DNA of 64,000 nucleotides from Patescibacteria group bacterium. Its GTDB lineage: Bacteria; Patescibacteriota; Patescibacteriia; UBA9934; GWF2-40-263. Below the pieces are notes generated by a model. The model was not told the DNA's origin. It searched no databases and saw nothing but the letters and a program-made list of their open reading frames with translations. A program made the position numbers and the translations under genes. This document shows, one piece after another, positions 11,913 through 64,000 of the stretch. Each line of letters begins with the position of its first letter. Within the stretch, counting starts at the first letter, position 1. The stretch spans positions 612,275 through 676,274 of the forward strand of contig SCUM01000001.1 in the NCBI GenBank assembly GCA_004297215.1. Direction: 5' to 3'.

Positions 11913-11941
11913 ATCTTAAATGAATCGAAAAACCCTGTCAA
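11913..11941 (-). promoter_or_regulatory. candidate rRNA operon promoter (minus strand TTGACA-17-TAAGAT) embedded in repeat R1
   Basis: Consensus -35 with 17-bp spacer and a TAAGAT -10 on the minus strand, about 500 nt upstream of the 23S 5' end. No 16S lies between. Confidence 0.4.
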
Positions 11942-11975
11942 GGGAACTGTCCCCTGGGTTTCCACAGTAGCGGTG
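11921..11975. repeat. ~45-bp repeat R1 (GAAAAACCCTGTCAAGGGAACTGTCCCCTGGGTTTCCACAG)
   Basis: Near-identical copy at 12485-12540. The two copies bracket rlmH. Contains AAACCC...GGGTTT and CCCT...AGGG nested inverted repeats. Confidence 0.6.
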
Positions 11976-12003
11976 GATAACGAAAATAGGCTAAGATACG
12001 CCC

Positions 12004-13086: not shown

Positions 13087-13241
13087 GAATCCGAGCCCGG
13101 GATACACAAACAAAACGACCCCCATTTTAAGGAGGGTCGTTTCATTGCCACCAAGAGGATACCGTAGAGGTACTCACCAGGGTTAATGGTATTCAATCAC
13201 GAAATATCATTTCCGTCAACCCATCTCCTGTGGAAAACCGC

Positions 13242-13844: not shown

Positions 13845-13855
13845 AGGTCGGTCGG

Positions 13856-13942
13856 TGGTGCCGGAAGTGGGACTCGAACCCACATGGGATTGCTCCCGCC
13901 AGCTCCTAAGGCTGGTGCGTATGCCAATTCCGCCACTCCGGC
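13856..13942 (-). tRNA. tRNA-Leu (anticodon TAG)
   Basis: 87-nt class II tRNA on the minus strand: GCCGGAG acceptor, anticodon loop CTTAGGA, long variable arm, GGTTCGAGTCC T-loop, CCA encoded. Confidence 0.85.
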
Positions 13943-14042
13943 ATGCGTCGCAGTGTAATGAAAGAAGCGGTTTGCGGCAATTATCCACATCCGGACGATT
14001 GACGGAAAAGCTTTTTCGTGGTGGAATGAACCTACAAGAGAA

Positions 14043-14072
14043 CACGACCCTCCCTTCCTGGGCGGGTCGTGT
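14043..14072 (+). promoter_or_regulatory. terminator-like hairpin plus T7 tract in the leader of the LTD-protein gene (possible attenuator or sRNA 3' end)
   Basis: ACACGACCC-tcccttcctgggc-GGGTCGTGT followed by TTTTTTC, about 60 nt before the ATG at 14131. A second hairpin CCCTGGgacgCCAGGG follows. Confidence 0.35.
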
Positions 14073-14130
14073 TTTTTCTTGCCGCGCGAGTCCCTGGGAC
14101 GCCAGGGCGCTCATTCACAAACCGACGCCT

Positions 14131-48178: not shown

Positions 48179-51076
48179 ATGAAGCTCCCCAAGCTCAAGC
48201 TCTCCAAGGGGGCTTGGCAGAACATCCTGCTCGTCGTTTCCCTGCTCGTGATGGGCGGCTCCCTGTTCACGCTCGGGCTGTTCGCGTTCGTTTCCCGCGA
48301 CCTGCCGGACCCGAAACAGCTCACGGAGCGCACCATTCCCGAGACCACTAAGATCTACGACCGCACGGGGGAGCATCTCCTGTACGCCATCTTCAATAAG
48401 GAGAACCGCACGCTCGTGAAGGTGCAGAAGGAGTTCTGTAATCCTGAGGCAGACATCGAGAAGGATGAAAAGGGAATTCCGCCCTTTGCGGTGCAAGCGA
48501 CCATCGCGGCCGAGGACCGTTCCTTTTGCACGCACGGCGGGTTCAGCTTCAAGGGGCTGTTGCGCGCGCTCGTGTTCGGCGGATCGCGCGGCGGCGGCTC
48601 CACGCTCACCCAGCAGCTCGTGAAGAACGCGATCTTGAGCAACGAACGCACGCTCACGCGCAAGGCCAAGGAGCTCATCCTCTCGCTCGAGCTCGAACGC
48701 CGCTATGAGAAGGACGAGATCCTCCAGATCTACTTCAACGAGATCCCCTACGGCTCCACCTACTACGGCATCGAGGCCGCGAGCCAGAACTTCTTCGGGC
48801 GCCACGTGAGCGACCTCACGCTCGCACAGGCCGCGACCCTCGCCGCCCTCCCGCAAGTGCCCACCTTCTACATCAACAACCCAGACCGGCTCCGCGTGCG
48901 CCGCGACTGGATCCTCGCAAGCATGGCGGAACTCGGGTTCATCACGACGGAAGAGGCCGAGGAGGCGAAGAAGACGGATACGCCGCTCAACGACCGCGTG
49001 AGCAACATCTCAGCCCCGCACTTCGTGTTCTACGTGAAGGAACAGTTGGAGGCGAAATACGGGCAGCGCCAGGTGGAGGAAGGGGGCCTTAAGGTGATCA
49101 CGACCCTTGATTACGACAAGCAGATGATCGCCGAGGAGGAGGTGAAGCGCGGGGTGGAGGAGCGAGGCGAGCAATATGCCTTCAATAACGCCGCACTCGT
49201 CGCGGAGGATCCCAGGACCGGGCAGATCCTCGCCATGGTGGGCTCCAAGGATTACTTCGACGACGAGATCCACGGCAAGGTGAACGTCACCACGCGAGCG
49301 CGTCAGCCGGGATCGAGCTTCAAGCCCATCGTGTACGCCAAGGGGTTCGAGCTCGGATATACGCCAAGCACGGTGCTTTGGGACGTGAACACCGTCTTCC
49401 CATCCACGACCGGCGCCTACAACCCGCATAACTACGACCTGAGCGAACGCGGACCTATCCGCGTGCGCGAGGCCTTGCAAGGGTCGCTCAACGTCCCGGC
49501 CGTGAAGCTGACCTATCTGGTCGGGGTGCCGCGCGCGCTCGATTTCGCCGAGACGCTTGGCTACACCACCTTCGAGGACCGCTCGCGGTTCGGGCTCTCC
49601 ATCGTGCTCGGCGGGGCCGAGGTGAAGCTCGTGGAGCACGTGGGCGCCTATGCCGCGTTCGCCGCCGACGGGATCCGTATGCCGCAGGCATCCATCCTTA
49701 AGGTGGAAGACGCGCACGGGACCGTCCTCGAGGAATGGAAGCCGCCTGAAGGGGAGAAGGTGATGGAACCAAACGTGGCGCGCACGCTCACGAACGTGCT
49801 GTCGGATAACGCCGCGCGCGCGTACGTCTTCGGCGCGAATAATGCGCTCACGCTCGGCACCCGCCCGGCAGCCGCGAAAACCGGCACCACCAACGACTAC
49901 CACGACGGGTGGACCATCGGCTATGTCCCGTCACTCGCTGCCGGCGTGTGGACCGGGAACGCGGACAACGCCGCGATGAAGAAGGGGGCGGATGGGAGTA
50001 AGATCGCGGCGCCCATCTGGAACGCGTTCATGAAGCGGGCGCTCGACGCGACGCCGGTGGAGACGTTCATGGGCCCCGTCCTGAATCCGACGGGCAAACG
50101 CATCCTCGATGGCGAGCTCGGCGGCACCACGGTCACCGTCGATAAGGCCACAGGCAAGCTCGCGACGGAATTCACCCCTCCCTCCATGCGTGAGGAACGC
50201 ACGTTCGCTGAATATCACGACATCCTCCATTACGTGGACCGTGCCGACCCGCTCGGCCCGATCCCGGCGGACCCGGGGAGGGACGCCCAATATGCGGCCT
50301 GGGAAGCGGGCGTGGCTGACTGGCTCGCGCGCAAGGAAATCGAGACGGGGATAAAGGTCACCAATGCCGCGCCCCCCACGGAATACGACGACGTACACGT
50401 GCCAGGCAACTTCCCGAGCGTCACCATAGAATCACCAGGAAACGGCAGTGAGATCTCTTCACGCTCGATCGACGTGGCCGTGAACGCGTTCGCTCCGCGC
50501 GGCGTGCGTCGGGTCGAGTTCTATCTCGATGGATTTTTCCTCGGCTCCGACGAATCCGAGCCGTTCTCCTTGCATGCGTCGCTCCCTAGCACGGTCGGCC
50601 GAGGATTCCACACGCTTAAGGCTGTAGCCTTTGATGATGTGGAAAACAGCGGCTCTGACACGGTTGGCGTGCACGTTACCAGCGATGCCGAGGTCGGCGG
50701 ATTCGATTTGTTGGACCCGAAGAACGGCCAAACGATCGAAAAAACCAGCTCCTCCTTCCCTGTAGCCGTCACATTGCAGGATCCGGGCGACTACAGCTCG
50801 GTCACGGTCACGGCCAAGCCGTCCGGCGCGGGTTCGCCACAGCCGGTCGGGACGAAGACCTTCCCCTCTTCCCCGTTCATCACCTTCGATTGGACCCTTC
50901 CCGCCGACGGGGATTGGATCCTCACTGCCTCGGCCGTCCGCACCCGTGATGGCGCGCGCATGGACACGGCCGGCATCGTGGTGCATGTCACCACCCCGTC
51001 AGGAACCGCCATCCCGACACCCTTGGACGGCACCCCGCCCCCATCGCAAAACGATTTGAATCCGTTCAAGACATGA
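48179..51076 (+). CDS. class A penicillin-binding protein (PBP1A: glycosyltransferase plus transpeptidase) with C-terminal Ig-like extension
   Basis: TM anchor. GT51 motifs (EDRSFCTHGGF, GGSTLTQQLVKN, RKAKE). Transpeptidase SSFKP, SLN and KTGTT motifs. About 300-aa C-terminal beta-rich extension. Confidence 0.85.
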   Translation: MKLPKLKLSKGAWQNILLVVSLLVMGGSLFTLGLFAFVSRDLPDPKQLTERTIPETTKIYDRTGEHLLYAIFNKENRTLVKVQKEFCNPEADIEKDEKGIPPFAVQATIAAEDRSFCTHGGFSFKGLLRALVFGGSRGGGSTLTQQLVKNAILSNERTLTRKAKELILSLELERRYEKDEILQIYFNEIPYGSTYYGIEAASQNFFGRHVSDLTLAQAATLAALPQVPTFYINNPDRLRVRRDWILASMAELGFITTEEAEEAKKTDTPLNDRVSNISAPHFVFYVKEQLEAKYGQRQVEEGGLKVITTLDYDKQMIAEEEVKRGVEERGEQYAFNNAALVAEDPRTGQILAMVGSKDYFDDEIHGKVNVTTRARQPGSSFKPIVYAKGFELGYTPSTVLWDVNTVFPSTTGAYNPHNYDLSERGPIRVREALQGSLNVPAVKLTYLVGVPRALDFAETLGYTTFEDRSRFGLSIVLGGAEVKLVEHVGAYAAFAADGIRMPQASILKVEDAHGTVLEEWKPPEGEKVMEPNVARTLTNVLSDNAARAYVFGANNALTLGTRPAAAKTGTTNDYHDGWTIGYVPSLAAGVWTGNADNAAMKKGADGSKIAAPIWNAFMKRALDATPVETFMGPVLNPTGKRILDGELGGTTVTVDKATGKLATEFTPPSMREERTFAEYHDILHYVDRADPLGPIPADPGRDAQYAAWEAGVADWLARKEIETGIKVTNAAPPTEYDDVHVPGNFPSVTIESPGNGSEISSRSIDVAVNAFAPRGVRRVEFYLDGFFLGSDESEPFSLHASLPSTVGRGFHTLKAVAFDDVENSGSDTVGVHVTSDAEVGGFDLLDPKNGQTIEKTSSSFPVAVTLQDPGDYSSVTVTAKPSGAGSPQPVGTKTFPSSPFITFDWTLPADGDWILTASAVRTRDGARMDTAGIVVHVTTPSGTAIPTPLDGTPPPSQNDLNPFKT

Positions 51077-51108
51077 AACGAAGAACGGGCCGTACGGCCC
51101 GTTTTCTT

Positions 51109-52245
51109 TTACTGTTTGATCGGCATCACGATATAGAGGTAGCCGGTCCCTTCTGATGGGGAAATGACACAAGGGTTGCCACCGTCGATCATCTTGAACG
51201 ACACCCTATCGCCACCCATCGCGTTGAGGCCGTCGAGAAGGTAACGGTAGTTCACCGTGACGTTGTTGTCGGAGCCGGTCGCCTCCGCCCCGCACTCGGC
51301 CGTATTGTCGCCGCGCGCGGCATCAGTCGCCTTCACCCGAAGTTTCTTTTCGTTCACGTCGAATTCAAGCGTCACGTCGAAAAGGCCCGTCCGCGAGAAG
51401 AGGCTTGCGGTCTTCACCGCTTTCACCATGTCGTCACGATCCAGCAAGGATTGCGTTTGGAACGATTTGGGAATGATCTGCCGATAATCCGGATAATGTC
51501 CCTCAATGAGGCGGGAAACGAGCTCAACCGTCCCGTAATCGAATGCCGCTTGGTTGTCGGAAAGCTTGAGGGAGATTTCCGCTGGGGAATCCACCTCGTC
51601 CTTGAACACGGATAGTATTCGGTTCACTTCGGAAAGGGTCCTTGCGGGAATGATGACCGTCTCCTCCGTTTCGACGGATCCCGCCGGGAGAGGGACGACG
51701 GCTTCCGCAAGACGGTATGAGTCGGTGGCCGCAAGCGTCATGGTCGAGTTTGTCCCGCTGTTGCCGAAACGGATGCACACCCCGGCAAGCTCGGGCCTGG
51801 ACTCGTTCGTGGCCACCGCGAACAAAACTTGGGAGAGGGCCGAGCGGAACGAGGCGACGGGGATGCGATACGAACGACTCGCCGTGACCTCTGGAACGAG
51901 CGGAAATTCCGAAGCGGGGAGTCCGTTCATCCGTGTCTTGTTTCCTGCGCATGAGACGGACATGCTCGTCCCCGCCTCCTCCACCGTCACGGTCTCGTTC
52001 GGAAGGAGGGATACGTAATCGAAGAAGAGCTTGGAGGGGACGGTAAACTCCCCTGGAACCTCTACCTTGCCACGCACTGAGCACGACACGGCTATTTCCA
52101 AATTCGTCGTCGTGAACCGTATCGCCCCGCCGTCCGCTTTCACCAGCACGTTCTGCAGGACGGGTAGGTTCACGTTCTTCGATGTGATGTGACTCGTGAT
52201 GGACAACCCTTGATGCAGGTTCTCCCTAGTACAGGATAATTTCAT
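51109..52245 (-). CDS. dnaN: DNA polymerase III beta sliding clamp
   Basis: MKLSCTRENL start with a GGGGG RBS. Three-domain clamp, 378 aa. Located directly downstream of dnaA. Confidence 0.85.
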   Translation of the reverse strand: MKLSCTRENLHQGLSITSHITSKNVNLPVLQNVLVKADGGAIRFTTTNLEIAVSCSVRGKVEVPGEFTVPSKLFFDYVSLLPNETVTVEEAGTSMSVSCAGNKTRMNGLPASEFPLVPEVTASRSYRIPVASFRSALSQVLFAVATNESRPELAGVCIRFGNSGTNSTMTLAATDSYRLAEAVVPLPAGSVETEETVIIPARTLSEVNRILSVFKDEVDSPAEISLKLSDNQAAFDYGTVELVSRLIEGHYPDYRQIIPKSFQTQSLLDRDDMVKAVKTASLFSRTGLFDVTLEFDVNEKKLRVKATDAARGDNTAECGAEATGSDNNVTVNYRYLLDGLNAMGGDRVSFKMIDGGNPCVISPSEGTGYLYIVMPIKQ

Positions 52246-52546
52246 ATCGATTCCCCCCTTCCTTGTCACCCCGTTATCTATTATTAGATAGATAGAGTAT
52301 GAGACTCACGAAGATAGTAAGGGGTGTGGACGGGGTGGATAGATAAGGAATAGGCTTAATATTCGCGAAAAAACAGTTGTAAGGAATGTGCATGGACCAC
52401 CCCTTTGTCTTGAGGATGATCGGAGGATGGAAGATGAGATGGAATTCCCTTTCCGATCATCCCCCTTTTCCCCACACGCGCGTCCGCAAGGCATCTCACC
52501 CTCTATCCTCCGGTTATCGACTTGTGGATAGAGGTGGATAAGCTGT
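52246..52546. promoter_or_regulatory. oriC-like dnaA-dnaN intergenic region with DnaA boxes and A/T-rich element
   Basis: TGTGGATAG (52523-52531), GTGGATAAG (52534-52542), TTATCGAC and GGTGGATAGATAAGG (about 52333). A/T-rich TTATCTATTATTAGATAGATAGAG element at about 52275. Confidence 0.5.
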
Positions 52547-53944
52547 TTAAAGCGCGTACAGCCGTTGTTTGATGATTTCCAGGTCATGTTGAAGCTTTTC
52601 GTCCTCATTCAGGCAGTTCAGGATCTTGTCGTAGGCATGCATGGCCGTGGTGTGGTCTCGGCCGCCGAGTTCGGATCCGATGGCTGGATAGCTTGCCTTC
52701 ATTTCCTCACGGAGGAGATACATGATGATCTGGCGAGGAAAGGCGAGGCGTTTTTCCCGGCTCTTTCCCAAGAGCTCATCGACGGGCAGGTCGAAGTACG
52801 TGGCGACCGTGGTGAGCACCTGGCGCGCGGTGAGCGTCTTCTTGTTCGTGGTCGGGTTGAAGCTCGTGAGGATGGGGCGGACGCTTTCCACGGTCGGGGG
52901 GATGTTCTTGAACTGGTGGAAGGCGATGACCTTGTTAAGCGCTCCCTCCAACTCACGCACGTTCGTCTGAACCACGGTGGCGACGTGGTTGAGGATGTCG
53001 TGGTCGAGAGCGTAGTTTTTTTCGCGACACTTAGCCCATAAAATGGCCACACGCGTCTCAAAATCAGGACTTCCCACATCGGCCATCATCCCGCATTCGA
53101 ACCGTGAGATGAGGCGCTGTTCGAGCTCTGGGATGGCCTTCGGCGGCCGGTCCGAGGTGATCACGATCTGCTTATTGTTTTGATAAAGCTGGTTGAACGT
53201 GTGGAAAAACTCCTCTTGCGTTTCCTTCTTTCCCTTAAGGAATTGGATGTCATCGATGAGCAGGAGGTCCACGTTGCGGTAGCGAGACTTGAATTCCTTC
53301 ATCTGGTTGCCGCGCAACGCCCCGATGTAGTCGTTCGTGAACCGCTCGCAGGTGACGTAGAGGACGTTGAGGCTTGGGGTCTTGCGTACCAGGTCATTCC
53401 CGACCGCTTGGAGGAGGTGCGTCTTGCCGAGCCCGACGCCGCCATAGATGAACAATGGGTTATAGACCCCGCCCGGCTGGGCCGCGACGGCTTGGGCGGC
53501 CGCATGGGCGAGCTCGTTCTGCTTCCCTACGATGAAGGTCGCGAACGCATACTTCCCGTTCAAGGTGAATTCCCCATTTTGCGGCTGGGCATGGGACGTT
53601 TCGACCTGGAATGGCATGGCATCGGCCTGGATCGGATGGTCGAGGGCAGGTTCAGAGGCAGGGGATGAAACCAGGGCGCCAGCCGCAGCAGGAATCTTGG
53701 AGTCCACCCGATAACTTATGATCCGGACCGTGTGGTTGGTGAGATTTTGCAAGGAGTTCATGATCTCCTTGTGATATTTTTTCTCAAGCCACGCCTTCGT
53801 GAACGCGTTCGGGACCCCGATGCACACCTCGTTTCCCGCATGGGAAGCGATGAACGTGTTACGAAACCATGTCGTGAAATTCGCCTTGCTTAGCGATAAC
53901 TCAAGCTCCCCTAATACAGCATGCCACAACTCATGAGTCGTCAT
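52547..53944 (-). CDS. dnaA: chromosomal replication initiator protein DnaA
   Basis: AAA+ Walker A GGVGLGKTHLL, Walker B LLLIDDIQFL, sensor motifs, and C-terminal DNA-binding helix-turn-helix (AIGSELGGRDHTTAMHAYDKI). Start at MTTHELW (53944). Confidence 0.9.
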   Translation of the reverse strand: MTTHELWHAVLGELELSLSKANFTTWFRNTFIASHAGNEVCIGVPNAFTKAWLEKKYHKEIMNSLQNLTNHTVRIISYRVDSKIPAAAGALVSSPASEPALDHPIQADAMPFQVETSHAQPQNGEFTLNGKYAFATFIVGKQNELAHAAAQAVAAQPGGVYNPLFIYGGVGLGKTHLLQAVGNDLVRKTPSLNVLYVTCERFTNDYIGALRGNQMKEFKSRYRNVDLLLIDDIQFLKGKKETQEEFFHTFNQLYQNNKQIVITSDRPPKAIPELEQRLISRFECGMMADVGSPDFETRVAILWAKCREKNYALDHDILNHVATVVQTNVRELEGALNKVIAFHQFKNIPPTVESVRPILTSFNPTTNKKTLTARQVLTTVATYFDLPVDELLGKSREKRLAFPRQIIMYLLREEMKASYPAIGSELGGRDHTTAMHAYDKILNCLNEDEKLQHDLEIIKQRLYAL

Positions 53945-53994
53945 ACCATCAACGGGACATTCCTCCTTAAATCCATTGAGTGACAGGTAGTGTA

Positions 53995-54050
53995 GTCCAG
54001 ATATCCACAACGGGGCAAGTGTGTGGATAGGGGGGGAAACAGTTGATAAG
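53995..54050. promoter_or_regulatory. DnaA-box cluster upstream of dnaA / between dnaA and rpmH
   Basis: ATATCCACA (54001-54009) and TGTGGATAG (54022-54030), matching the TTATCCACA consensus at 8/9 positions. Confidence 0.45.
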
Positions 54051-54080
54051 TTGGGGATGGGGTGCTAGGATGGCCGTGCT

Positions 54081-54233
54081 ATGAAACGAACGTTCCAACC
54101 CAAGAAAGCGCGCGCCGGAAAGGTGCATGGCTTCCGCGTCCGCTCCCGTTCAAGGAGCGGCCGGGCGGTCCTTGCCCGCCGCCGCGCGGTCGGACGCAAG
54201 CGTGTGTCCGTGCAGAGGAAAAAGCTCAAATGA
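54081..54233 (+). CDS. rpmH: 50S ribosomal protein L34
   Basis: [50 protein letters not shown]. Missed by the >=60-aa ORF track. Confidence 0.9.
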
Positions 54234-54291
54234 TCCTGCCTAAGGCAGGATCATCCTGAGCCCCGACATTACGTCGGGACGAAAGGATCCT

Positions 54292-54630
54292 ATGTTGCCC
54301 GCGCAGAACCGCTTGCGGCATGAGAAGGATATCAAAGCACTCTTCTCCGAAGGGAAGGGTGTTTTTGATGCCCTCTGCGGATTGAAGTATCGCAAGAACG
54401 GGCTTGGGTCCTCTCGTTTCGCGGTGGTGGTCGGGACAAAAGTCTCGAAGAACGCCGTGGATCGCAATCGGGTGCGACGACGCATCCGTTCCGTGCTGGA
54501 AGCGCGCCTCGCTCTCATAAAGCCGGGATTTGACGTCGCCTTCCTTACCCGCCCGGGGGTCACGAAGAAGGATTTTGCGGCCATTGAGGCAGCGGTCGTG
54601 AGTTCACTCAAGCGCGCCAAGCTTTTGTGA
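54292..54630 (+). CDS. rnpA: ribonuclease P protein component
   Basis: 112 aa, basic, with RNR motif region (KNAVDRNRVRRRIRS). Classic position after rpmH. Confidence 0.85.
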   Translation: MLPAQNRLRHEKDIKALFSEGKGVFDALCGLKYRKNGLGSSRFAVVVGTKVSKNAVDRNRVRRRIRSVLEARLALIKPGFDVAFLTRPGVTKKDFAAIEAAVVSSLKRAKLL

Positions 54631-54632
54631 GG

Positions 54633-54863
54633 ATGATCGCCTTGGGAGCCATACGCCTGTACCAAATGACCCTCTCTCCGGATCATGGGCCGTTGCGTTT
54701 CCTCCATCCGAACGGATTTTGTCGGTTTCATCCTACGTGCTCGAGCTATGCGTTTGAGGCGGTCGAACGATTTGGTACAGGAAAGGGCCTGTGGTTGGCC
54801 ATGAAACGCCTCTTACGCTGCCACCCTTGGTCACCTGGAGGCATCGACGAGGTTCCGAAATAA
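54633..54863 (+). CDS. yidD: membrane protein insertion efficiency factor YidD
   Basis: AIRLYQMTLSP...CRFHPTCSSYAFEA conserved YidD motif. ATG 54633 with GAGG RBS. Confidence 0.8.
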   Translation: MIALGAIRLYQMTLSPDHGPLRFLHPNGFCRFHPTCSSYAFEAVERFGTGKGLWLAMKRLLRCHPWSPGGIDEVPK

Positions 54864-54869
54864 AACGGC

Positions 54870-55118
54870 CTAGACAGGCCGATTTTTATAAACTTCATCA
54901 GGGATTTCCACCTGTTTTAGCCGCGTTCCGGCCCCTCGGACGAGGTTCAAGCGGGACGGAGCTACCCCGAACTCGTCCGCGAGCAGCCGGAGGAGCGCTT
55001 CATTGGCTTTTCCCTTCTCTGGTGGGGCGTTCAGGTCGACTTTTATGGTCGTGTTGTCGAGCCATGACACAATTTTTGTTTCCCGAGCGTTCGGCCGGGC
55101 GTGAACTGTGAGGATCAC
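54870..55118 (-). CDS. DUF167/YggU-family protein
   Basis: 82 aa. GKANEALLRLLA motif typical of UPF0235. GTG start overlapping the upstream stop. Confidence 0.6.
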   Translation of the reverse strand: MILTVHARPNARETKIVSWLDNTTIKVDLNAPPEKGKANEALLRLLADEFGVAPSRLNLVRGAGTRLKQVEIPDEVYKNRPV

Positions 55119-55909
55119 ATGGCTTCCTCCCTCATTTTTCGGATAGTTTCTACCACTTTACGGTGGATGACCCTGTTGCTGGCCACCAAATCGTCCTTCG
55201 TGAGGTCCCAGGGGGTTCCGTCGTAGGTGGTAACCCTTCCCCCGGCCTCTTTCACTAGCAGGACTCCTGCGGCCGTATCCCAAGGCTTGTCCCCCGTGAG
55301 AATGACCGCGTCCGCACGCCCGGCCGCGACGGAGGTGAGCATGATGGTGGCCGACCCTAATCGCCGGAAGTACGGCATGGACAGCTCAAGCGCAGTGACG
55401 ATGTTGCGGTGGACCGCCCGGTCGCGGTTTCGATACCCACGTCCGGCCAGGAACATGGCGCCGTGGGCCACGCTTCGGCGAGTCACGCGGATTCGTTTGC
55501 CGTTCAGGAACGCCCCTTTCCCCCGCTCTGCCGTGAACATCTCATCGTGGATAGGGTCGTAAATCACTGAAAGTTCCGTCACCCGGTCCTTCACGCGGGC
55601 GATGGCAACGGCAAACAGCGGGATGCCGTTGATGTAGTTCGTGGTCCCGTCGAGCGGGTCGATGATCCAGGTGCGGCCGTCCCCGATCTCCATCGGGGCC
55701 CGGTCGGACTCCTCGCTCAAAAGGTGGTCGTCTGGGAACGCCTTGGCAAGACGGCGCAGGATGAGGCGGTTGCTGGCAAGATCCACTTCGGACACCGGCC
55801 CGCCCTTTTCCTTGAACCGGACCCGGTTATCCGGCCTCAAAAAGTGTCGTTTGAGGATCGCACCGGCGTCCCTGGCCGTCTTTACCGCGATGCGAAGCTC
55901 GGGAGACAT
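55115..55909 (-). CDS. inositol monophosphatase family protein (SuhB-like)
   Basis: EESDR...WIIDPLDGTTNY...AAGVLLVKEAGG motifs of the IMPase/FIG superfamily. Confidence 0.75.
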   Translation of the reverse strand: MSPELRIAVKTARDAGAILKRHFLRPDNRVRFKEKGGPVSEVDLASNRLILRRLAKAFPDDHLLSEESDRAPMEIGDGRTWIIDPLDGTTNYINGIPLFAVAIARVKDRVTELSVIYDPIHDEMFTAERGKGAFLNGKRIRVTRRSVAHGAMFLAGRGYRNRDRAVHRNIVTALELSMPYFRRLGSATIMLTSVAAGRADAVILTGDKPWDTAAGVLLVKEAGGRVTTYDGTPWDLTKDDLVASNRVIHRKVVETIRKMREEAM

Positions 55910-55921
55910 AGCCCTCGTACA

Positions 55922-56758
55922 TTACGCCTTGCGGAAACCCTTGAGAAGCCGCAGGTCTTCGCCCACCCCGTCGTCCCACGGGGTCTCGAGGATCAGGTCG
56001 AGATGTTGGATCTTGGGGTGCGAGACAATCGCCTGGAACCCTTTGAGTCCGATCTTTCCTTTTCCGAGGTGCTCGTGGCGGTCCTTGTGGGCCTCGAAAT
56101 CGACCAGGGAGTCGTTGCAATGGGACATCACGAGCCGGTCTAATCCGACCAATTCGTCGAATTGGTCGAATGTGTGGCGAACGGCCTTGGCCGTTCGCAG
56201 GTCGTACCCCGAGGCGAACGCATGCTGCGTGTCGAAGCAGACGCCAATTTCCTTCCCACGCCTAGCCCCGTCCAGAAACGCCGCAATCTCTTCAAACGTG
56301 TCCCCCATCACCATTCCGGCGCCCGCGGAGATTTCGATAAGCAGCTGACAGTCGCCTTCATATCTGTCCATGACGCGATCGATTCCCTCGATGACCATCT
56401 CCAAGCCCTTCTCCTGTCCCACGTCTTTCGCCGAACCGGGATGGAACATCACGGCGCGACACCCAAGCGCGCTGCCACGTTCAAGTTCGTCGCGAATGAT
56501 GCCAACCGATGAGTGTCGGATGCGAGGTTCGGACGAGGCGAGGTTGATGAAGTATGGAGCATGGATGTAAGCCGCCTTCTGCCCATGCTCCTTCATCGCG
56601 TCCTGAAACTTCGCCGAGACCTCCGGCGTGATTGGTGCCGGCTTCCCACCTTGGGGCGGACGGGAAAACATCTGGAACACCTCGCAGCCGAGTTCGGCGG
56701 CGTTCTTTGGTCCGTTCCAAAGGCCGCCTGCTGCGGAAACGTGAGCGCCGAATTTCAT
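55922..56758 (-). CDS. nfo: deoxyribonuclease IV (endonuclease IV, AP endonuclease family 2)
   Basis: MKFGAHVSAAGG start, HAPYFINLAS, ISAGAGMVMGD and HCNDS motifs of the xylose-isomerase-like TIM barrel Nfo. Confidence 0.8.
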   Translation of the reverse strand: MKFGAHVSAAGGLWNGPKNAAELGCEVFQMFSRPPQGGKPAPITPEVSAKFQDAMKEHGQKAAYIHAPYFINLASSEPRIRHSSVGIIRDELERGSALGCRAVMFHPGSAKDVGQEKGLEMVIEGIDRVMDRYEGDCQLLIEISAGAGMVMGDTFEEIAAFLDGARRGKEIGVCFDTQHAFASGYDLRTAKAVRHTFDQFDELVGLDRLVMSHCNDSLVDFEAHKDRHEHLGKGKIGLKGFQAIVSHPKIQHLDLILETPWDDGVGEDLRLLKGFRKA

Positions 56759-56830
56759 AGATTTCAATCCTAACACAACATTTGTTCAAGAAAAGAAAAA
56801 AGGGTGACACCGTCACCCCTTCGATAGTCA

Positions 56831-57820
56831 TCATCCGAGCACACCTGCGAGTCGCCCCTTCCAGCTCTTGGTATGAAAAATACGTGCGACAGACTTGTTT
56901 CGAGCCTCCTTCCACCCAATGCGCCCATTGGCCCAGTCGTGTGCCGTATCCTTGTTTTCCTCGTCAAACACATACAGCGCATGGCCGTAGTTCGGCGAAT
57001 CAACCACAAGGATGCGCTTGCTGTTCTTCAAGCCGGTGAACATGAGTCTTTCGCCGATTCCGACGAAAATGTCCTGTGTCTCGTCGAAGGTCCCTGGATC
57101 GAAACACTGTCCGTCCACGATGCGTCGGATGCGTTTCTGATTGCGCTCAAGCGCCATCTGACGCGCAAGTCGCATTCGGATCAGTTCGATCGTGTTCACA
57201 CCGTCGAAATAACATCCGACGATGCTGTCGAGCAGCAGCGACCAGTTCCGCTCGTGAATCGGCTGGACGAACCGGATTGCCTTGTGGCGCGACCATTCGT
57301 ACGGACGTTCTCGCGGGAAGGTGATATCCCCATTGGTGACATCCCCATTTTCCAGACGGAAGAAGGTATATTCGATTTCCGTCGCCATAATCTTCTCCAC
57401 CTCCGCGACGCATAGGCTGATGAACGGATAAGGAAGGAATGTTCCTTCACGCATCCAGCCATCCTTGATTCGTTCCCAACCATCACGCCCATGATTGTCC
57501 CCGAATTCTCGATCGTAACACCTCCATTCACCGTACGACTCTGAGTCTACGTATCCATTCCTCCACCATTTTATGTATGGCAGGGGTTCGGAAATCATCC
57601 AAAACTCGCGACCGTCATTCAAGGTTCCTTCGATTTGTTCAATCGATGTCGGATACAGGTGTCCCTCAACCGCATGGCCAATGATTTTTCCATCGACCTC
57701 AAGACGGTTGATGTGCCGTCTTCCCTTAACGGCCATCACGGTTCTGACAGGCATTTCCCTCCGACTAAGCGTAGTGATGGCGACATCCCGGACAGGCCGA
57801 ATCTTGACTAGGTGGCGCAT
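56831..57820 (-). CDS. hypothetical Trp-rich protein (329 aa) in lower-GC islet
   Basis: GGAGG RBS. Local GC is visibly lower than the flanks. No family recognised. Confidence 0.5.
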   Translation of the reverse strand: MRHLVKIRPVRDVAITTLSRREMPVRTVMAVKGRRHINRLEVDGKIIGHAVEGHLYPTSIEQIEGTLNDGREFWMISEPLPYIKWWRNGYVDSESYGEWRCYDREFGDNHGRDGWERIKDGWMREGTFLPYPFISLCVAEVEKIMATEIEYTFFRLENGDVTNGDITFPRERPYEWSRHKAIRFVQPIHERNWSLLLDSIVGCYFDGVNTIELIRMRLARQMALERNQKRIRRIVDGQCFDPGTFDETQDIFVGIGERLMFTGLKNSKRILVVDSPNYGHALYVFDEENKDTAHDWANGRIGWKEARNKSVARIFHTKSWKGRLAGVLG

Positions 57821-57981
57821 CTCTTCCTCCGATTGATGTACGGAAAGAATTCCGTTGGTGCGACCGAAGCGATTTTCAATGATCCGGTAAGGATGCTACA
57901 GGAAAATTACGATTTTGTCAATAGATTTACTGTCAGTTTATTATTACAAACTCTCTTACAAAATCAGTAGAATATGCTATA

Positions 57982-58002
57982 CTGTCATTATAGATATGAC
58001 AG
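57982..58002. promoter_or_regulatory. palindromic operator candidate (CTGTCAT-tatagat-ATGACAG) overlapping the TrmB-like gene start
   Basis: Perfect 7-bp inverted repeat centred on an A/T-rich spacer, in the divergent A/T-rich intergenic region. Confidence 0.4.
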
Positions 58003-58775
58003 ATAATGTTTTTCGAAAGACAAAAGGCAGCGAAAACCTTCTCGTTTCGAGACTGGAGGAGTTTGGGTTGAATGCCGCCGAAGCGCAGGTGTACGTCTAT
58101 TTATTGGAACGAGGATCGGAGGCCGGAGGGTCGCACATAGCCCAGGCGACCGATCTGCACCGGCAATACGTATACCTAGCTCTCCCCCGACTCATCGAGC
58201 TTGGGCTCATCGAGGAGGTTCCACGCGGAAAGCAACACGCATACAAGGCCCGCTCGCCGATCGAGATTGAGAAGATCGGGCGCAAGCGCGCGTTGCTCGC
58301 TGGCGACCTCGCGCGGGATCTAAATGCCGTGAGTGCTATCGGGAATGAGCAGGATTTCGAGGTGGTACAAGGCACTCGTGCCATCCAGGATTTTGAGCTC
58401 CAATTTGTAGGGCGCGCAAACGAGGGTGAACAGGAGTGCATCATCGGCGGCGCCTCGCAAGCGTTCGGAGAGCTCATGCGCGACCAACTCGAGGCATATC
58501 TGGAGCTCAAAAAGGAAAAGAAGATCGTAGTGAAATATATAGGGACCGAAGACGAACGACCGTCGTATCAGAAATACATCGGGAAGTTCGCGCATCAGCA
58601 ATATCGCTTCCTGCCAAAGCTTCCGAAAGGAAACGCGCACATGGTTGTGAGAAAAGACAGCGTGGCCTTTTATAGCTTTCTTCAGCCGCCGCTCGTGTAC
58701 GTCGTGAAATCTCCCGTCGTCGCGGCAAACTACAAGCAATTCTTCCTCATGCTTTGGGAAATGGCGACGGTTTGA
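57996..58775 (+). CDS. TrmB-family transcriptional regulator
   Basis: N-terminal winged HTH of the TrmB type (LGLNAAEAQVYVYLLERGSEAGGSHIAQATDLHRQYVYLALPRLIELGLIEEV). Start at ATG 57996. Confidence 0.65.
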   Translation: MTDNVFRKTKGSENLLVSRLEEFGLNAAEAQVYVYLLERGSEAGGSHIAQATDLHRQYVYLALPRLIELGLIEEVPRGKQHAYKARSPIEIEKIGRKRALLAGDLARDLNAVSAIGNEQDFEVVQGTRAIQDFELQFVGRANEGEQECIIGGASQAFGELMRDQLEAYLELKKEKKIVVKYIGTEDERPSYQKYIGKFAHQQYRFLPKLPKGNAHMVVRKDSVAFYSFLQPPLVYVVKSPVVAANYKQFFLMLWEMATV

Positions 58776-58809
58776 AACGGAAAAGCGGGGCCATTTGCCC
58801 CGCTTTTTG

Positions 58810-60099
58810 TTATTTCACCATTTCACTCCTTAGCTTATCGATCACCTTCCGATTTCGCAGTACGACCGTGACGTACTCCCGATACTGCGGCGAGTACAGG
58901 CGCTTCTTGGCCTCGGGATCCTCGTAATTTTCGGCCACCTTGTCGAGTTCTTCGTCCACTTCCTTGTCCTCGACGGTGATTTTCTCAAGCTTCGCGATCT
59001 CCTTCACGATGATGGCCACCTTCACGCGCGTGAGCGCCTGCGCGGCGAACTCGAGCTTGAGCTGCGCGATGGATTTCTTGATGGACGACAGGTACTTGTC
59101 GAAGTCGAGTCCCTGCGCGGTGACGTTGTGCTCGAGCTCCGAGAGCATCTTCATGATTTCCTCGTTCACGAGCAGGTCCGGGATGTCGTCGAAGCGGGAA
59201 TCCTTGGCGATCAGCCCAAACATCTCACGCTCCACACGGCGTCGCTCCTCCTCCGCGCGCTCAGCCACGAGGTTCTCCTTGATGCGTCCGCGCAGCGTGG
59301 CAACGTCGGCCTGTCCCATGGACTTGGCGAACGCGTCGTCGATGGGCGGCGCCTCGAGATGATAGAGCTCGTTGAGCGTCACCTCGAAGTCCACGTCGGT
59401 GCCGGCAAGCATCTTGGACGCATGCCCCTCCGGGAACTTGAGGGTGAACGATTTCTTTTCGCCCTCCTTCATCCCCAGCACATGCTCCTTGAAGCCCGGA
59501 ATGTAATACTCCTCGCCCATGTAAACCGCGTGATTGGGGGACTGCCCGCCCTCGACGGGGATGCCCGCCTTCTTCATGTCCATGGCCATCACCGCCTTGT
59601 CCTTGTCCGAAACGGCCGTACCGCCCGGAGCACGGACCTCCCTGGTCTGCATGCGCGTAAGGTCTTTCAGTACCAGGTCGACCTCCTTGTCCTCGACCGG
59701 TTTCGTCTGCGACTTCACCGACATCTTGTGCCAGTCCGCGAGCTTGGTCACGGCCGGCATCTTCGCGACCTCGGCGGTATATACGAGGTCATTGTCCGGG
59801 GCGAGCTTCACCACGTCGATCTTGGGCGAACCCACGGTCTCGAGGTCGTTCTTCGCGAACGCCTCGAACAGCGTGGCACGGACGACGGGCTCGAGCGCGG
59901 CCTCGTAAATCTTCATTTCCCCGACGCGGTTTTTCACCAGGTCGTACGACGCGTGTCCCGGGCGGAACCCGGGGATGGAGGTTTCCTCCGAAATCGCGGA
60001 AGCCGCGGTTTCAAGGTAGGATTTCAACTCCTCTTTCGGGACGGTGACCGTGATCTTTACCGCGTTTTTCGCGAGATTTTCGACCTGGATGGAAGGCAT
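58810..60099 (-). CDS. tig: trigger factor (ribosome-associated chaperone/PPIase)
   Basis: 429 aa. N-terminal ribosome-binding domain, central FKBP-like domain (FTLKFPEGH...GTDVDFEVTLNE), C-terminal arm domain. Confidence 0.85.
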   Translation of the reverse strand: MPSIQVENLAKNAVKITVTVPKEELKSYLETAASAISEETSIPGFRPGHASYDLVKNRVGEMKIYEAALEPVVRATLFEAFAKNDLETVGSPKIDVVKLAPDNDLVYTAEVAKMPAVTKLADWHKMSVKSQTKPVEDKEVDLVLKDLTRMQTREVRAPGGTAVSDKDKAVMAMDMKKAGIPVEGGQSPNHAVYMGEEYYIPGFKEHVLGMKEGEKKSFTLKFPEGHASKMLAGTDVDFEVTLNELYHLEAPPIDDAFAKSMGQADVATLRGRIKENLVAERAEEERRRVEREMFGLIAKDSRFDDIPDLLVNEEIMKMLSELEHNVTAQGLDFDKYLSSIKKSIAQLKLEFAAQALTRVKVAIIVKEIAKLEKITVEDKEVDEELDKVAENYEDPEAKKRLYSPQYREYVTVVLRNRKVIDKLRSEMVK

Positions 60100-60182
60100 A
60101 ATGGGCCGAGTTTAGGCCATAAACTCCCCCGCGTCAACGGGGAAACCAAACCCCGCCCTTTTGGGGCGGGGTTATTGGATGG

Positions 60183-62201
60183 TTATGCGATGAACGCGAC
60201 GATGAGCAGCGCCACGATGTTCAGGATCTTGATCATCGGGTTGATGGCAGGGCCAGCCGTATCCTTGTACGGGTCGCCCACGGTGTCGCCGGTGACGGCC
60301 GCCTTGTGCGTGTCGCTTCCCTTGCCGCCGTAGTTGCCAGCCTCGATGAACTTCTTGGCGTTGTCCCACGCGCCGCCGCCGGTGGTCATTGAGATGGCCA
60401 CGAACAATCCGGTGACGATGGAACCGATGAGGAGCCCTCCGAGCGCCTCCTTGCCAAGGCCGAAACCGACGACGATCGGGGCGAACACGGCGAGGAGCGA
60501 TGGGAGAACCATCTTGCGGATGGCCTCCTGGGTGACGATGTCGACCGCCTTGGCGTAATCCGGCTTCCCAGTGCCCTCCATGATGCCAGGAATTTCGCGG
60601 AACTGGCGACGCACCTCGGCCACGACCGAACCGGCCGCCTGGCCCACGGCTTCCATGGCCATGGCGCCGAAAAGATAGGTCACGAGGCCGCCCAGGAACA
60701 ATCCGGCGATCACGTCCGGGTCTGCCAGGCTGAAGATGACATCGCCGCCCTTTGCCTCGAGCGCGTGCACGAAATCGCCGAAGAGCACGAGGGTGGCAAG
60801 GCCGGCCGAGCCGATGGCATAGGCCTTGGTGACGGCCTTGGTGGTGTTGCCGACCGCGTCGAGGGGATCCGTGACGTCACGGACCTCCTTGGGGAGATCC
60901 GCCATCTCGGCGATGCCGCCGGCGTTGTCCGTGATGGGACCATACGCGTCGATTGCCACCACGATGCCCGTGAGCGAGAGCATGGCCATGGCCGCGATCG
61001 CGACGCCGTACAAGCCAGCCTGCTGGAAGGCGATGAGGATGCCGAGCACGATGGTGATTACCGGGAGCGCGGTGGACTTCATGGAGAGGGCGAGGCCGGC
61101 GATGATGTTGGTGCCATGGCCGGATTGGCTCGCCTCCGCGAGCTTCTTCACCGGGCCATACTGGGTGCCGGTGTAGTACTCGGTGATCATGATCATGAGG
61201 CCGGTCACCACGAGGCCCAGCAGGGCGCAGAGGTATACCGCCTTCACGTCGAGTCCCGCGACGCCCCCGAGCAGGTTCTTGGTGAGCGGATAGAAGCCGA
61301 TGGCGGCCAGGATGCCGGATGCCGCGAGGCCCTTATAGAGCGCCCCCATGATGTTCTTCTTGTTGGCGCCGAGCTTCACGAAGAAGGTGCCCACGACCGA
61401 GGCGATGATCGCGACGCCGCCGAGCGCGAGCGGATAGAGGGTGGCGTTCAGGTCGTTCGGGAACAGGAGGTGACCGAGCACCATGGTGGCCACGGTGGTC
61501 ACCGCATAGGTCTCGAACAGGTCCGCGGCCATGCCGGCGCAGTCCCCCACGTTATCCCCCACGTTGTCGGCGATCACGGCCGGATTGCGTGGGTCATCCT
61601 CGGGGATGCCCGCCTCGGTCTTACCAACGAGGTCCGCGCCCACGTCGGCGGCCTTCGTGAAGATGCCGCCGCCCAGCCTCGCGAACACGCTGATGAGCGA
61701 GCCGCCGAATCCCAGGCCGATGAGCGCGTCAACGTCCTGCGTGACAGCATAGAAGCCGGCGACGCCAAGGAGCGCGAGGCCTACCACGAACAAGCCCGTC
61801 ACCGCGCCGCCCTTGAAGGCCATGTCGAGCGCCTTTTCAAGGCCACCCTTCGCCGCCTCAGTGGTGCGCACGTTCGCACGCACGGATACGGACATGCCGA
61901 TGTAGCCGGCGACTCCGGAGAGGATGGCGCCCACGGCGAACCCGGCGGCCATGGTCCAGCCAAGCGCGAGGCCAAGCACCACGAAGACGACGGCGCCGAT
62001 CATCGCGATCGTCTTGTACTGGCGCGCCATGTACGCGTTCGCCCCTTCCTGGATGGCAAGCGCGATCCCCTTCATTTTCCCGTCTCCGGACGGCTGCTTG
62101 AGAATCCAGTTGATGAGAAAGCCTCCATAAGCCAGGGCGACCACGGAGGCGCCGATGGCGTACTGAATGATGTCATTCATAGATGGGCCTGGATGGGCCA
62201 A
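60183..62201 (-). CDS. hppA: membrane-bound H+/Na+-translocating pyrophosphatase
   Basis: About 670 aa, 15-16 TM. GGG(I/A)[23 protein letters not shown] and [14 protein letters not shown] signature motifs. Start may be M1 (62201) or M8 (62180). Confidence 0.85.
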
Positions 62202-62230
62202 AAAGTACCTAAGACGGTGTTATACTAGGA

Positions 62231-62875
62231 ATGAAACCGCATATTGTCAAAGAGCCCATGTCCCCTTCGGCCCCGACCTTCCTCGTCGAACGCGAGCTCC
62301 GGAAGCGCGGTTTTTGCGCCATCGCCGGGGTGGACGAGGCCGGAACCGGGGCGTTGGCAGGGCCGGTCGTCGCGGGGGCGGTCATCTTTCCGTTCGACTC
62401 GAGGCTCGGGAAGGTGCGCGACAGCAAGCTCATTCAGGAAGGGGCCCGGGAGGAGCTGTACGAGCTCGTCATCGCGCGTTCGTCGGCGCATGCCGTGGGC
62501 ATCGCGGAGGTCGAGGAAATAGCATCGGTCGGGTTGCGACGCGCCACTTTGAACGCGATGCGTCGAGCCGTGGAAGCGATCGCCGCCGTCGATTACGTGC
62601 TCGTGGACGCCTGGACCATTCCCGGCATCACGATTCCCCAACACGGCATCATCCGCGGGGACCGTACCGTAAAGTCCATCGCCGCGGCGTCCATCATCGC
62701 CAAGGTGACGCGCGACCGGCTCATGCGCGCGCTCGCGCAGGAGCATCCCGCGTACGGATTCGACATCCATAAGGGGTATGCAACGGCCGAGCACCGCCTG
62801 GCGATAAGAAAAGAGGGCCCGTGCCCCGTCCATCGGCTCTCGTATAGGTCGTTCCTGCCCATGGATACTAAATAA
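62231..62875 (+). CDS. rnhB: ribonuclease HII
   Basis: [23 protein letters not shown] and DSK...YVLVDA motifs. 214 aa. Confidence 0.85.
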
Positions 62876-62908
62876 GGCTAAGATGAGCAGTTATTTCCCT
62901 TTTTTCCA

Positions 62909-62937
62909 TTGACAGATGAGGCCGTGATTGCTACCAT
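62909..62937 (+). promoter_or_regulatory. putative sigma70 promoter (TTGACA-17-TACCAT)
   Basis: Upstream of the LysM-protein gene. Confidence 0.4.
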
Positions 62938-63060
62938 TCCGTCACTTGAAAATGAGGTAACCCTCCCTTTATCAAGCTCGCGATCAAACAACTGTTCGTC
63001 CGCGCGCTGCTTACGCTCCTGTACGGGCTGATCTGGTTTCGGAGGGCCGTCGTCCCGTTC

Positions 63061-64000
63061 ATGAAGGCCGCTTCCACGCCCCTGCGCATCGCAGGGCGTT
63101 TTGTGTTGCGCGCGTTGGGGGTCCCGATCTACCGCCTGGCTTTCTTTCTCAAGCGGCAGACGGGCCGCGTGCTCATGCCGGCAAAAAACCGCGTCGCCTA
63201 CCTGGCTTCCAACCGATATGCCATCCACGTGTCCGTGGTCGCCATCGCGGCGTTCGCGAGCGGGACGAATCTCCAGGGGAGCGAGGTGCGCGCCGAGTCG
63301 TTCGGGACCGGAAGCATGCTGTACGCCTTGGTCGCGCAAGACGATTCACAGGCGGTCGAGGTGGTATCCGCGCAGCCGGCTCCTCCCCCGTCGAACGTCT
63401 CGTATCTCGACAATGATGGCACCATCGCGTCGCGCGCCTATCCGGACCTCGACCTGAACAGCCATGCCTACGCGACCACCACGGTGGGCGGGAGCGCCGT
63501 TTCCGCCCCCACGATCTACGACGGAGGGGCGTCCGTGGCCCCGAGGACCGCGGTGGAGACCTATCAGGTCGCCGAGGGGGATACCTTGTACGGCATCGCC
63601 GACCGGTTCGGCCTCTCCTTGAGTTCGCTCCTGTGGGCCAACAACATGACGGTCCGAAGCATCATCCGTCCGGGACAGAGCGTGAAGATCCCCCCGATTG
63701 ACGGCGTGATCTATACCATCAAGAAGGGCGACAGCCTGTCGAGGATCGCGAAGGCATACGGGGCCGAGACGGAAAGGATCATCGCGTTCAACCGCCTGTC
63801 GAGCGCCGACGACCTGGTGGTGGGCGAGCAGATCGTGCTGCCGGACGCCGAACCGCCCGCCCCGCCCCGCACGGCGTCCGTCGCGAGGATCTTCACCACT
63901 GGGAAGGCGCCGCTCACGGGACAAACGAGCACGCGCACCGGCGCGCTCGCCGGATTTAGCGGGGGATCCGGCACGTGGGTTTGGCCCACCAACTGGCATG
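63061..64000 (+). CDS. LysM-domain peptidoglycan-binding protein (N-terminal TM; probable peptidase continues beyond window), partial
   Basis: Two LysM repeats (YQVAEGDTLYGIADRFGLSLSSLLWANN; YTIKKGDSLSRIAKAYGAETERIIAFNRL). The frame continues past 64000. The start could lie upstream on a non-ATG codon. Confidence 0.55.
   Translation, partial: MKAASTPLRIAGRFVLRALGVPIYRLAFFLKRQTGRVLMPAKNRVAYLASNRYAIHVSVVAIAAFASGTNLQGSEVRAESFGTGSMLYALVAQDDSQAVEVVSAQPAPPPSNVSYLDNDGTIASRAYPDLDLNSHAYATTTVGGSAVSAPTIYDGGASVAPRTAVETYQVAEGDTLYGIADRFGLSLSSLLWANNMTVRSIIRPGQSVKIPPIDGVIYTIKKGDSLSRIAKAYGAETERIIAFNRLSSADDLVVGEQIVLPDAEPPAPPRTASVARIFTTGKAPLTGQTSTRTGALAGFSGGSGTWVWPTNWH

Follow-up and report, generated by a model that had tools for sequence, protein, structure and literature searches.

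The 64-kb window analysed here, the whole stretch of DNA under study, comes from a high-GC Patescibacteria metagenome-assembled genome (MAG; window GC 0.619). Between nfo (AP_endonuc_2, E 2e-48) and tig, both assigned with Pfam, it carries two divergently transcribed genes. The rightward gene encodes a winged helix-turn-helix (wHTH) protein, hereafter REG, and the leftward one a tryptophan-rich protein, hereafter X; at NCBI, X and REG are recorded as hypothetical protein EPO34_03405/03410 of a Patescibacteria group bacterium, encoded by an 842-kb contig. The spacer between them measures 175 bp, with a GC content of 0.36. By the REG module we mean the wHTH protein together with an 88-bp bidirectional control region, in which two operator-like sites (O1 and O2) accompany the promoters of REG (P_REG) and X (P_X). 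Our preferred reading, which we consider moderately probable, is that of a self-repressing regulator with a two-operator, tetR/tetA-like bidirectional promoter and exchangeable cargo, inserted at the tig–nfo junction. Coordinates are collected in Table 1.

REG matched the wHTH domain PF01978 (TrmB) with an E-value of 1.6e-11 and 44.3 bits, above the gathering score of 25.6, which bears out the TrmB-type wHTH proposed in an earlier interpretation of this DNA from its letters alone (the sequence-only reading). Its recognition helix reads LHRQYVYLAL. Past the winged helix, a conserved C-terminal domain (about 170 residues) matched no Pfam family, and the protein has a single cysteine. Homologues numbered 299, the best 120 of which share 54–71% identity with REG; they are about 250–265 aa long, their start methionine M1 is nearly invariant, and they originate mostly from Parcubacteria-group MAGs (Lloydbacteria, Wolfebacteria, Nomurabacteria, Kaiserbacteria and others). 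PF01978 was matched in all 30 sampled family members, with no other Pfam domain. Literature searches on TrmB in Patescibacteria and on regulator motifs of the candidate phyla radiation (CPR) returned no description of the REG family or its operator. We regard REG as a Patescibacteria-specific branch of PF01978 with an uncharacterised C-terminal domain, which is presumably effector-binding.

The REG start codon lies within the O1 palindrome, CTGTCAT-N7-ATGACAG, which the sequence-only reading had described as overlapping the ATG and which proved to be exact. The palindrome search covered the 64-kb window and returned this one copy only: no other match occurred with up to two mismatches, 0.08 were expected and at least one was found in 7 of 100 shuffled sequences. 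Directly upstream, a promoter scan identified P_REG, whose −10 hexamer (57978–57983) is preceded by TG. Since 12 nt separate this −10 from the ATG, the leader of the REG mRNA is predicted to measure no more than about 6 nt (0–6 nt); no Shine-Dalgarno (SD) sequence is present.

In order to assess conservation, upstream DNA from 62 genomic loci encoding REG relatives (483 kb) was aligned on the start codon. The family consensus for the regulator promoter was TTGcAa, 16–17 nt, TGnTAtAcT, directly 5' of O1. Two subfamilies shared the recognition helix LHRQYVY. Subfamily A comprises 15 exact-site sequences including that of the window, with protein identities to REG of 25% (L066), 28% (L038) and up to about 64%, and its consensus reads ttTGTCAATa..t.ttaTG(t/a)CA.tatTTtattaCAaaaa...TTGcAaaatAtag.TAtt.Tg.TAtA.TGTCATaa.aa.TATGACAgtt; here the −35, a 16–17-nt spacer, the extended −10 and the palindrome follow in this order, the right arm consisting of the ATG plus a threonine codon. 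Subfamily B (29 sequences, 28–33% identity) has the same layout with the palindrome tAGTCAT-N6-ATGACTa. Between A and B, G is replaced by A in the left arm and A by T in the right arm, the threonine codon is ACA in one and ACT in the other, and the spacing is shifted by one base; the matched differences thus indicate that both arms change together.

Overall, the palindrome covered the ATG in 53 of 58 HRQYVY-type genes (12 with the exact A form, nine with a TGTAAT mismatch in the left arm, 28 with the exact B form and four related variants), and was absent from distant paralogues with an R-x-T-V-Y helix. Across the 483 kb of REG loci, we counted 57 GTCA..TGAC pairs whose arms stand 6 or 7 nt apart, mostly at regulator starts, and 6–16 pairs for every other spacing. 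The family-wide retention of the palindrome over the ATG and the co-variation of its arms support the autoregulatory role that the sequence-only reading had suggested for this candidate site.

An alternative is that the palindrome works in RNA, either as a 5' hairpin hiding the AUG of the mRNA (translational control) or as a terminator-like structure. If transcribed, positions 57978–58006 would fold at −8.2 kcal/mol (z = −3.7), examples from subfamilies B and A fold at −7.6 and −7.4 kcal/mol, a terminator scan flagged O1 as terminator-like, and arm co-variation is as compatible with a hairpin as with a dimer site. Further, a promoter-like TTGTCA-18-TATTAT (57915–57944) would place the palindrome in a leader; this upstream promoter and its long-leader mRNA were dropped as not conserved in the REG family, most loci having TTTTAT. 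In contrast, transcription directed by the conserved −35 and extended −10 would begin inside the palindrome and leave the left arm untranscribed. The TGTAAT variant of the closest homologue folds at only −0.5 kcal/mol, the fold in an 80-nt context was no better than that of shuffled sequences (z = −0.8), and O2, a related site, is found 67 bp further upstream at a place where a hairpin role is implausible. We thus find a function in RNA improbable.

With regard to O2, its subfamily A consensus TGTCAAT..TG(A/T)CA, 66–67 bp from O1, fits all 15 subfamily A sequences listed. At the expected distance, GTCAA (TTGACA on the other strand) was present in 41 of 43 REG loci; a −10 of the form TAnnnT at 16–18 nt was scored in 21 loci, CATAAT-like hexamers were recognised by eye in most others, and many had an upstream TG. 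A −35 role cannot explain why the 15 subfamily A sequences all keep the right arm, TG(A/T)CA. We considered TACTGTCA, at 57928, as an independent half-site and rejected it, as it is the right arm of O2. The sequence-only reading had linked the regulator to the divergently transcribed gene, and of this proposal the conserved divergent promoter, with its −35 inside O2, was recovered in 41 of 43 loci, while control itself is suggested by this arrangement of sites.

Downstream of the divergent promoter, a 40–75-nt leader with an SD sequence is followed by a protein gene that differs by genome. According to Pfam, these genes encode a receiver-like protein, a stand-alone C-terminal domain of the RNA polymerase alpha subunit, a TauD dioxygenase, a sigma-r4/helix-turn-helix (HTH) protein and a methyltransferase, and many had no match. 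The commonest divergent neighbours, Peripla_BP_6 solute-binding proteins, accounted for eight of the 62 loci, and the largest neighbour cluster was common to at most 10 of the 62. The predicted start of the divergent transcripts, about 8 nt past their −10, carries a conserved TCAGAAG(G/A)TTC or TCAGACGATC element (e.g. L021, L022, L025, L026, L043 and L044), and a CATTGAA/CCTTGAA motif lies further downstream of this start (in the window, TCATTGAAAA at 57882–57873 on the minus strand). Rfam returned nothing meaningful between positions 55500 and 60500 of the window (the sole match, Lacto-phage-1, had E 0.54 and 22.6 bits, where the gathering score is 50) and only tRNAs in 16 REG loci; therefore, the conserved divergent element corresponds to no known RNA.

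Taken with the architecture of O1, these features lead us to propose a mechanism of the following kind. REG, most likely as a dimer, would bind O1 (TGTCAT-N7-ATGACA), which starts within the extended −10 and covers the predicted start and the ATG, so that binding would shut off the REG mRNA, itself predicted to be almost leaderless and SD-less, through promoter occlusion (negative autoregulation). Because O2 overlaps the divergent −35, the same REG protein would also repress the divergent gene, and X would be co-regulated by REG through O2. A signal sensed by the C-terminal domain of REG would relieve repression at both promoters. Across genomes, REG and its control region are conserved and the divergent gene is exchangeable, in the window being X. 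The proposed mechanism itself is classical, and autoregulation has been reported or proposed for some TrmB members (PMC4158304). What is new is a PF01978 branch in Patescibacteria with its start codon embedded in a candidate operator and an exchangeable divergent gene; also new is a bidirectional control region that is conserved as a whole across about 30% protein identity.

Several observations weigh against this mechanism. The TGTAAT mismatch occurs in nine homologous genes, including the closest ones, L005 (70%) and L006 (63%), and the palindrome is therefore not strictly maintained. The right arm of O2 in the window is TGTCA (direct) and not TGACA, and half-site orientation varies among loci. 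TTGACA is the plain sigma-70 −35 consensus. Moreover, X homologues elsewhere have near-identical promoters (TTGACAAAATCG...) with neither a regulator nor TGWCA pairs nearby, so that P_X could be X's own, REG-independent promoter. No second X–REG pairing was found in the 62 REG loci or in the recovered contexts of seven X relatives.

Such observations would fit a situation in which REG represses itself only and X, unrelated to it, travels along under a constitutive promoter of its own; O2 and the −35 would then overlap because TGTCAA is complementary to the sigma-70 −35 consensus. The regulator-free promoters of Uhrbacteria-like X homologues, e.g. TTGACAAAATCGCATTTTT..TAAATT, which likewise lack the TGWCA pair, and the uniqueness of the X–REG pairing to the window favour it. 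It accounts poorly for a divergent promoter at exactly the same position in 41 of 43 REG loci and for a conserved O2 right arm that has no promoter role; we regard it as a possible but rather doubtful explanation.

Table 1. Positions and strands of the features discussed, in window coordinates.
Feature	Position	Strand	Description
Inserted islet	56761–58843		Without counterpart in the closest relative, L074; spans nfo start to tig end
Terminator-like hairpin of X	56798–56822	−	11-pair stem, then T-run; directly past the X stop codon
X	56831–57820	−	329-aa Trp-rich orphan; ATG at 57820
X domains			N-terminal beta domain, residues ~7–96; low-confidence Trp/Asp/Glu/Gly-rich linker, 98–129; conserved C-terminal alpha/beta domain, 130–329
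X Shine-Dalgarno	57826–57830	−	GGAGG; 5 nt separate it from the X ATG
P_X	57893–57921	−	−35 TTGACA (57921–57916), 17-nt spacer, −10 TAGCAT (57898–57893); 10 of 12 matches in promoter scan
O2	57915–57936		TTGTCAATAGATTTACTGTCAG, of the form TGTCA-N10-TGTCA; upstream of O1 by 67 bp; left arm complementary to the P_X −35
TTATTACAAA element	57941–57950	+	Between O2 and the REG −35; conserved; subfamily A consensus tatTTtattaCAaaaa
P_REG	57956–57983	+	−35 TTACAA (57956–57961), 16-nt spacer, extended −10 TGcTATACT (57975–57983); promoter scan
O1	57982–58002		Exact palindrome CTGTCAT-N7-ATGACAG; overlaps the −10 by its final 2 nt and includes the predicted transcription start and the ATG (57996)
REG	57996–58775	+	259 aa; ATG at 57996; PF01978 winged helix, residues 20–88
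Terminator-like hairpin, REG/tig	58780–58808		12-pair stem, 7 G-C; between convergent REG and tig

The REG/tig hairpin was scored on the plus strand, with a T-run also on the complementary strand, and by its position it could serve both genes. Further observations concern the organisation of REG loci elsewhere. Two or three REG-family copies occur within 8 kb in L008, L009, L012, L013, L020, L022, L023, L027, L033, L035, L049, L054, L059 and L060, with 75 copies counted in 59 loci; in L008 the paralogues alternate with Peripla_BP_6 genes, and L035 combines an A-like variant site of 8-nt spacing with a subfamily B site 2.9 kb away. A PemK/MazF-like toxin gene lies directly upstream of REG and co-oriented with it in L007 (2330–2733) and L024 (3336–3755). 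In L007, O1 is on the start codon of the PemK toxin gene and not on that of the regulator, which suggests a toxin-regulator operon. REG also frequently has xth (exonuclease III), xerC/D and the gene of the CCA-adding enzyme as neighbours within about 2–3 kb (L010, L016–L018, L021, L028, L033, L038 and L046); its proximity to two non-homologous AP endonucleases (xth there, nfo in the window) may be a coincidence or a functional hint.

Protein X contains 11 tryptophans (3.3%, compared to 1.07% in reference proteins). The sequence-only reading had described it as Trp/Asp/Glu-rich, and only the first part stood: aspartate plus glutamate (14.3%) are matched by lysine plus arginine (15.2%) and the isoelectric point is 8.6, so that X is not acidic. 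The NCBI entry starts at M23 and gives a 307-aa protein, leaving out the region 57755–57820; we favour the 329-aa form on account of its SD sequence GGAGG, the conserved residues K6, R8 and V13, and predicted local distance difference test (pLDDT) values of 83–91 for residues 1–20.

X had no match in Pfam, NCBIfam, PHROG, PADLOC or PDB sequences. Five homologues with 37–50% identity were found among 5.8 billion clusters, and among 1.84 billion representatives searched with a profile, 113 proteins proved to share the C-terminal 170–200 residues, with no informative Pfam domain detected in them; the few relatives that carry names are annotated as hypothetical proteins from Uhrbacteria and Magasanikbacteria. 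Residues D274, Y283, H316 and W320 of X are near-invariant. Similarly, PADLOC and PHROGs gave no consistent match across all 101 X-family members. An AlphaFold2 model built on a six-sequence alignment was unusable (pLDDT 49.7); repeated with 101 sequences, modelling reached a pLDDT of 83.3 and a predicted TM score (pTM) of 0.69. This model had no fold neighbour in the PDB with Foldseek at E<1e-3 and none in BFVD. X looks like a cytoplasmic protein with two domains; its family is rare, confined to Patescibacteria and without a recognisable fold. The evidence excludes a recognisable carbohydrate-active or sugar-binding family for X.

The neighbours of X homologues were housekeeping genes (ftsK/recA, rbfA-DHH/gyrA, AAA_28/DNA_binding_1 and Peptidase_M50), and no X relative lay beside a TrmB or sugar gene in the recovered contexts of seven relatives. 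In the Uhrbacteria-like loci L001 (9292–13006), L002 (9348–13952) and L004 (6282–10596), the X homologue is divergent from ftsK and heads about eight small (~100-aa) open reading frames (ORFs) without Pfam match, some of them mutual paralogues, which extend up to rpoB. As the small ORFs downstream of X homologues (L001–L004) have no counterparts in the window, there is no conserved X operon. Within X itself, positions 57320–57349 contain a 15-bp tandem duplication (GGTGATATCCCCATT / GGTGACATCCCCATT) encoding NGDVT-NGDIT, where homologues have a single, highly conserved (D/N)GSVTNGK copy.

We also analysed whether the region carrying both genes differs from its surroundings. The GC content of 56800–58800 was 0.521, against 0.619 for the window, and only 4 of 620 2-kb windows were equally low; since the lowest begins at 56701, the islet is the GC minimum of the window. 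GC content at third codon positions (GC3) was 0.621 for X and 0.642 for REG, compared to 0.816 ± 0.056 in 24 reference genes (z = −3.45 and −3.08), and z values of the codon adaptation index (CAI) were −2.7 and −2.4, respectively. X homologues of comparable high-GC genomes showed host-like GC3 values of 0.80–0.88, against 0.62 for X here. Thus, windowed GC and codon usage both set the two genes apart from those of the host, as expected from the lower-GC islet that the sequence-only reading had placed between nfo and tig; its description of the flanks as uniformly ~65% did not hold, as they range from 0.59 to 0.65.

Relatives of the host were recovered by a metagenome scan with the trigger factor of the window. 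The closest one, L074 (tig 78% and PPase 90% identity, GC 0.61), has the gene order RNaseHII-PPase-tig-nfo-IMPase-YggU-dnaA-dnaN with a tig/nfo gap of 22 bp. In blastn, window and L074 were collinear over 50538–56760 and 58844–63864, with 51 bp in L074 in place of 2,083 bp in the window. Further, tig adjoins nfo in L074 and at least eight additional relatives (including L075, L078, L088–L091 and L093). These comparisons, together with the GC3 deviation, sustain the suggestion of acquired DNA made previously, and the islet is a two-gene cassette inserted between tig and nfo. Other relatives carry unrelated genes at this junction, namely an ORF6N-like gene and other ORFs in L086 (8291–10924) and L087 (1493–3913), and L097 has a distant TrmB-like gene there (1291–3435; hidden Markov model E 7e-20). 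The junction would therefore be a recurrent insertion point, and from such gene orders it looks like a hotspot.

Alternatively, the region could be ancestral and have been lost by the relatives, its low GC content resulting from the constraint of an AT-rich control region plus drift. No integrase ORF was found among the ORFs or Pfam matches at the islet, no flanking direct repeats were detected, the closest tRNA is 46.6 kb away, and neither the X nor the REG family had members on IMG/VR viral contigs in either scan; all this, and the near-universal presence of the REG family within the group, would be compatible with ancestry. Against it, tig and nfo are adjacent in relatives of 54–78% tig identity, a breadth that would require many independent, precise losses. 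The low GC3 runs through both coding regions and differs from that of X homologues in comparable genomes, and unrelated cargo occupies the same junction in other relatives. We consequently give ancestry little credence.

In the surroundings of the islet, dnaN (51109–52269) and dnaA (52547–54010) are both on the minus strand, with the islet about 3 kb from dnaA, and the presence of the two genes indicates that the replication origin is probably directly upstream of dnaA. The dnaA-dnaN stretch has a GC content of 0.55–0.57, below the rest of the window. At 8000–12000 lies a second lower-GC stretch (0.54–0.57), in which all ORFs are short and lack the high GC3 that is usual here. ARAGORN predicted a tRNA-Leu(tag) at 13856–13942 (minus strand) within a 1082-aa ORF (13186–16434, plus strand) with Lamin Tail Domains; either the start of this ORF is over-extended or the tRNA-Leu call is spurious.

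The sequence-only reading had gone further and suggested that REG may, as is usual for TrmB proteins, control a sugar-related neighbour, the divergent gene possibly encoding a carbohydrate-active enzyme or a binding protein from a family not yet described. What defines TrmB proteins is a PF01978 DNA-binding domain, to which a PF11495 effector domain may or may not be joined; the motifs known for them are TACTN3AGTA, TGM TATCACN5GTGATA and TACTN7-8GAGTA (PMC4158304). The PF01978 match in REG and the Peripla_BP_6 neighbours in eight of 62 loci are in line with a sugar role. The remaining evidence is not: PF11495 had no match at E<=1 in any of the 30 family members, no chain named TrmB was among the PDB sequences that the family profile matched at E<=10, and the O1-type sites (TGTCAT-N7-ATGACA and AGTCAT-N6-ATGACT) differ from the known TrmB motifs. 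No sugar ABC transporter or glycolytic/gluconeogenic gene adjoins REG, the window neighbours being X, nfo and tig, and the divergent neighbours across loci are heterogeneous and not sugar-related. X lacks a carbohydrate-related domain, fold or neighbour, its N-terminus has no hydrophobic stretch indicating a signal peptide, and its relatives reside among housekeeping genes. PF01978-only proteins can have non-sugar roles, an example being a thiol-based oxidative-stress regulator (PMC9426492). The sugar model is essentially refuted, and we assign it hardly any probability. With it goes a plausible but wrong annotation, which the Pfam name 'Sugar-specific transcriptional regulator TrmB' could otherwise help to spread.

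Beyond this locus, one may speculate that REG and its 88-bp control region represent a conserved 'expression socket' in Paceibacteria, in which a constant pair of sensor-repressor and promoter would take up differing accessory genes at the divergent position; whole cassettes would be able to relocate (here to the tig–nfo junction near oriC), and X would be an accessory effector with an unseen fold. Were this tentative idea true, the REG family would be a main route by which minimal, regulator-poor symbionts place new genes under signal-dependent control. Patescibacteria genomes encode few regulators and most lineages are uncultured; to our knowledge, the way in which this group (candidate phyla radiation) regulates transcription has hardly been explored. 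The REG family offers a definable candidate operator, a promoter and a predicted near-leaderless start, features that permit in vitro study without cultivation. The constant regulator and control region beside a variable divergent gene suggest a general way of wiring accessory genes into regulation, and X provides a family that is confidently modelled and, by that model, without structural relatives.

Compared with known systems, REG shares with archaeal TrmB/TrmBL proteins the N-terminal PF01978 winged helix and a palindrome over core promoter elements, to which it would bind. It differs from them in its bacterial (Patescibacteria) host, the lack of a detectable PF11495, its HRQYVY recognition helix and operators (TGTCAT-N7-ATGACA / AGTCAT-N6-ATGACT), and the absence of sugar-transport or glycolytic neighbours.

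In tetR/tetA, back-to-back promoters with two operators combine autorepression and target repression, which is relieved by ligand. By analogy, one operator-like site would act on the REG promoter and the other on the divergent promoter. REG has a wHTH in contrast to the HTH of TetR, its divergent gene varies between genomes, its start codon is inside an operator-like site and its mRNA is predicted to be nearly leaderless.

OxsR of Haloferax volcanii is a single-domain, thiol-based PF01978 regulator of oxidative stress (PMC9426492), and thus a PF01978 protein that regulates a non-sugar process. OxsR consists of a single wHTH with a thiol switch, whereas REG adds a conserved C-terminal domain of ~170 aa and has one cysteine. 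With respect to the WYL repressors of the BrxR/CapW type, which are located beside varied defence systems (PMC13622015), REG has no WYL domain, the PADLOC matches were insignificant and the cargo does not consist of recognisable defence genes; the likeness would lie in a conserved, ligand-responsive wHTH repressor that stands beside varying genes.

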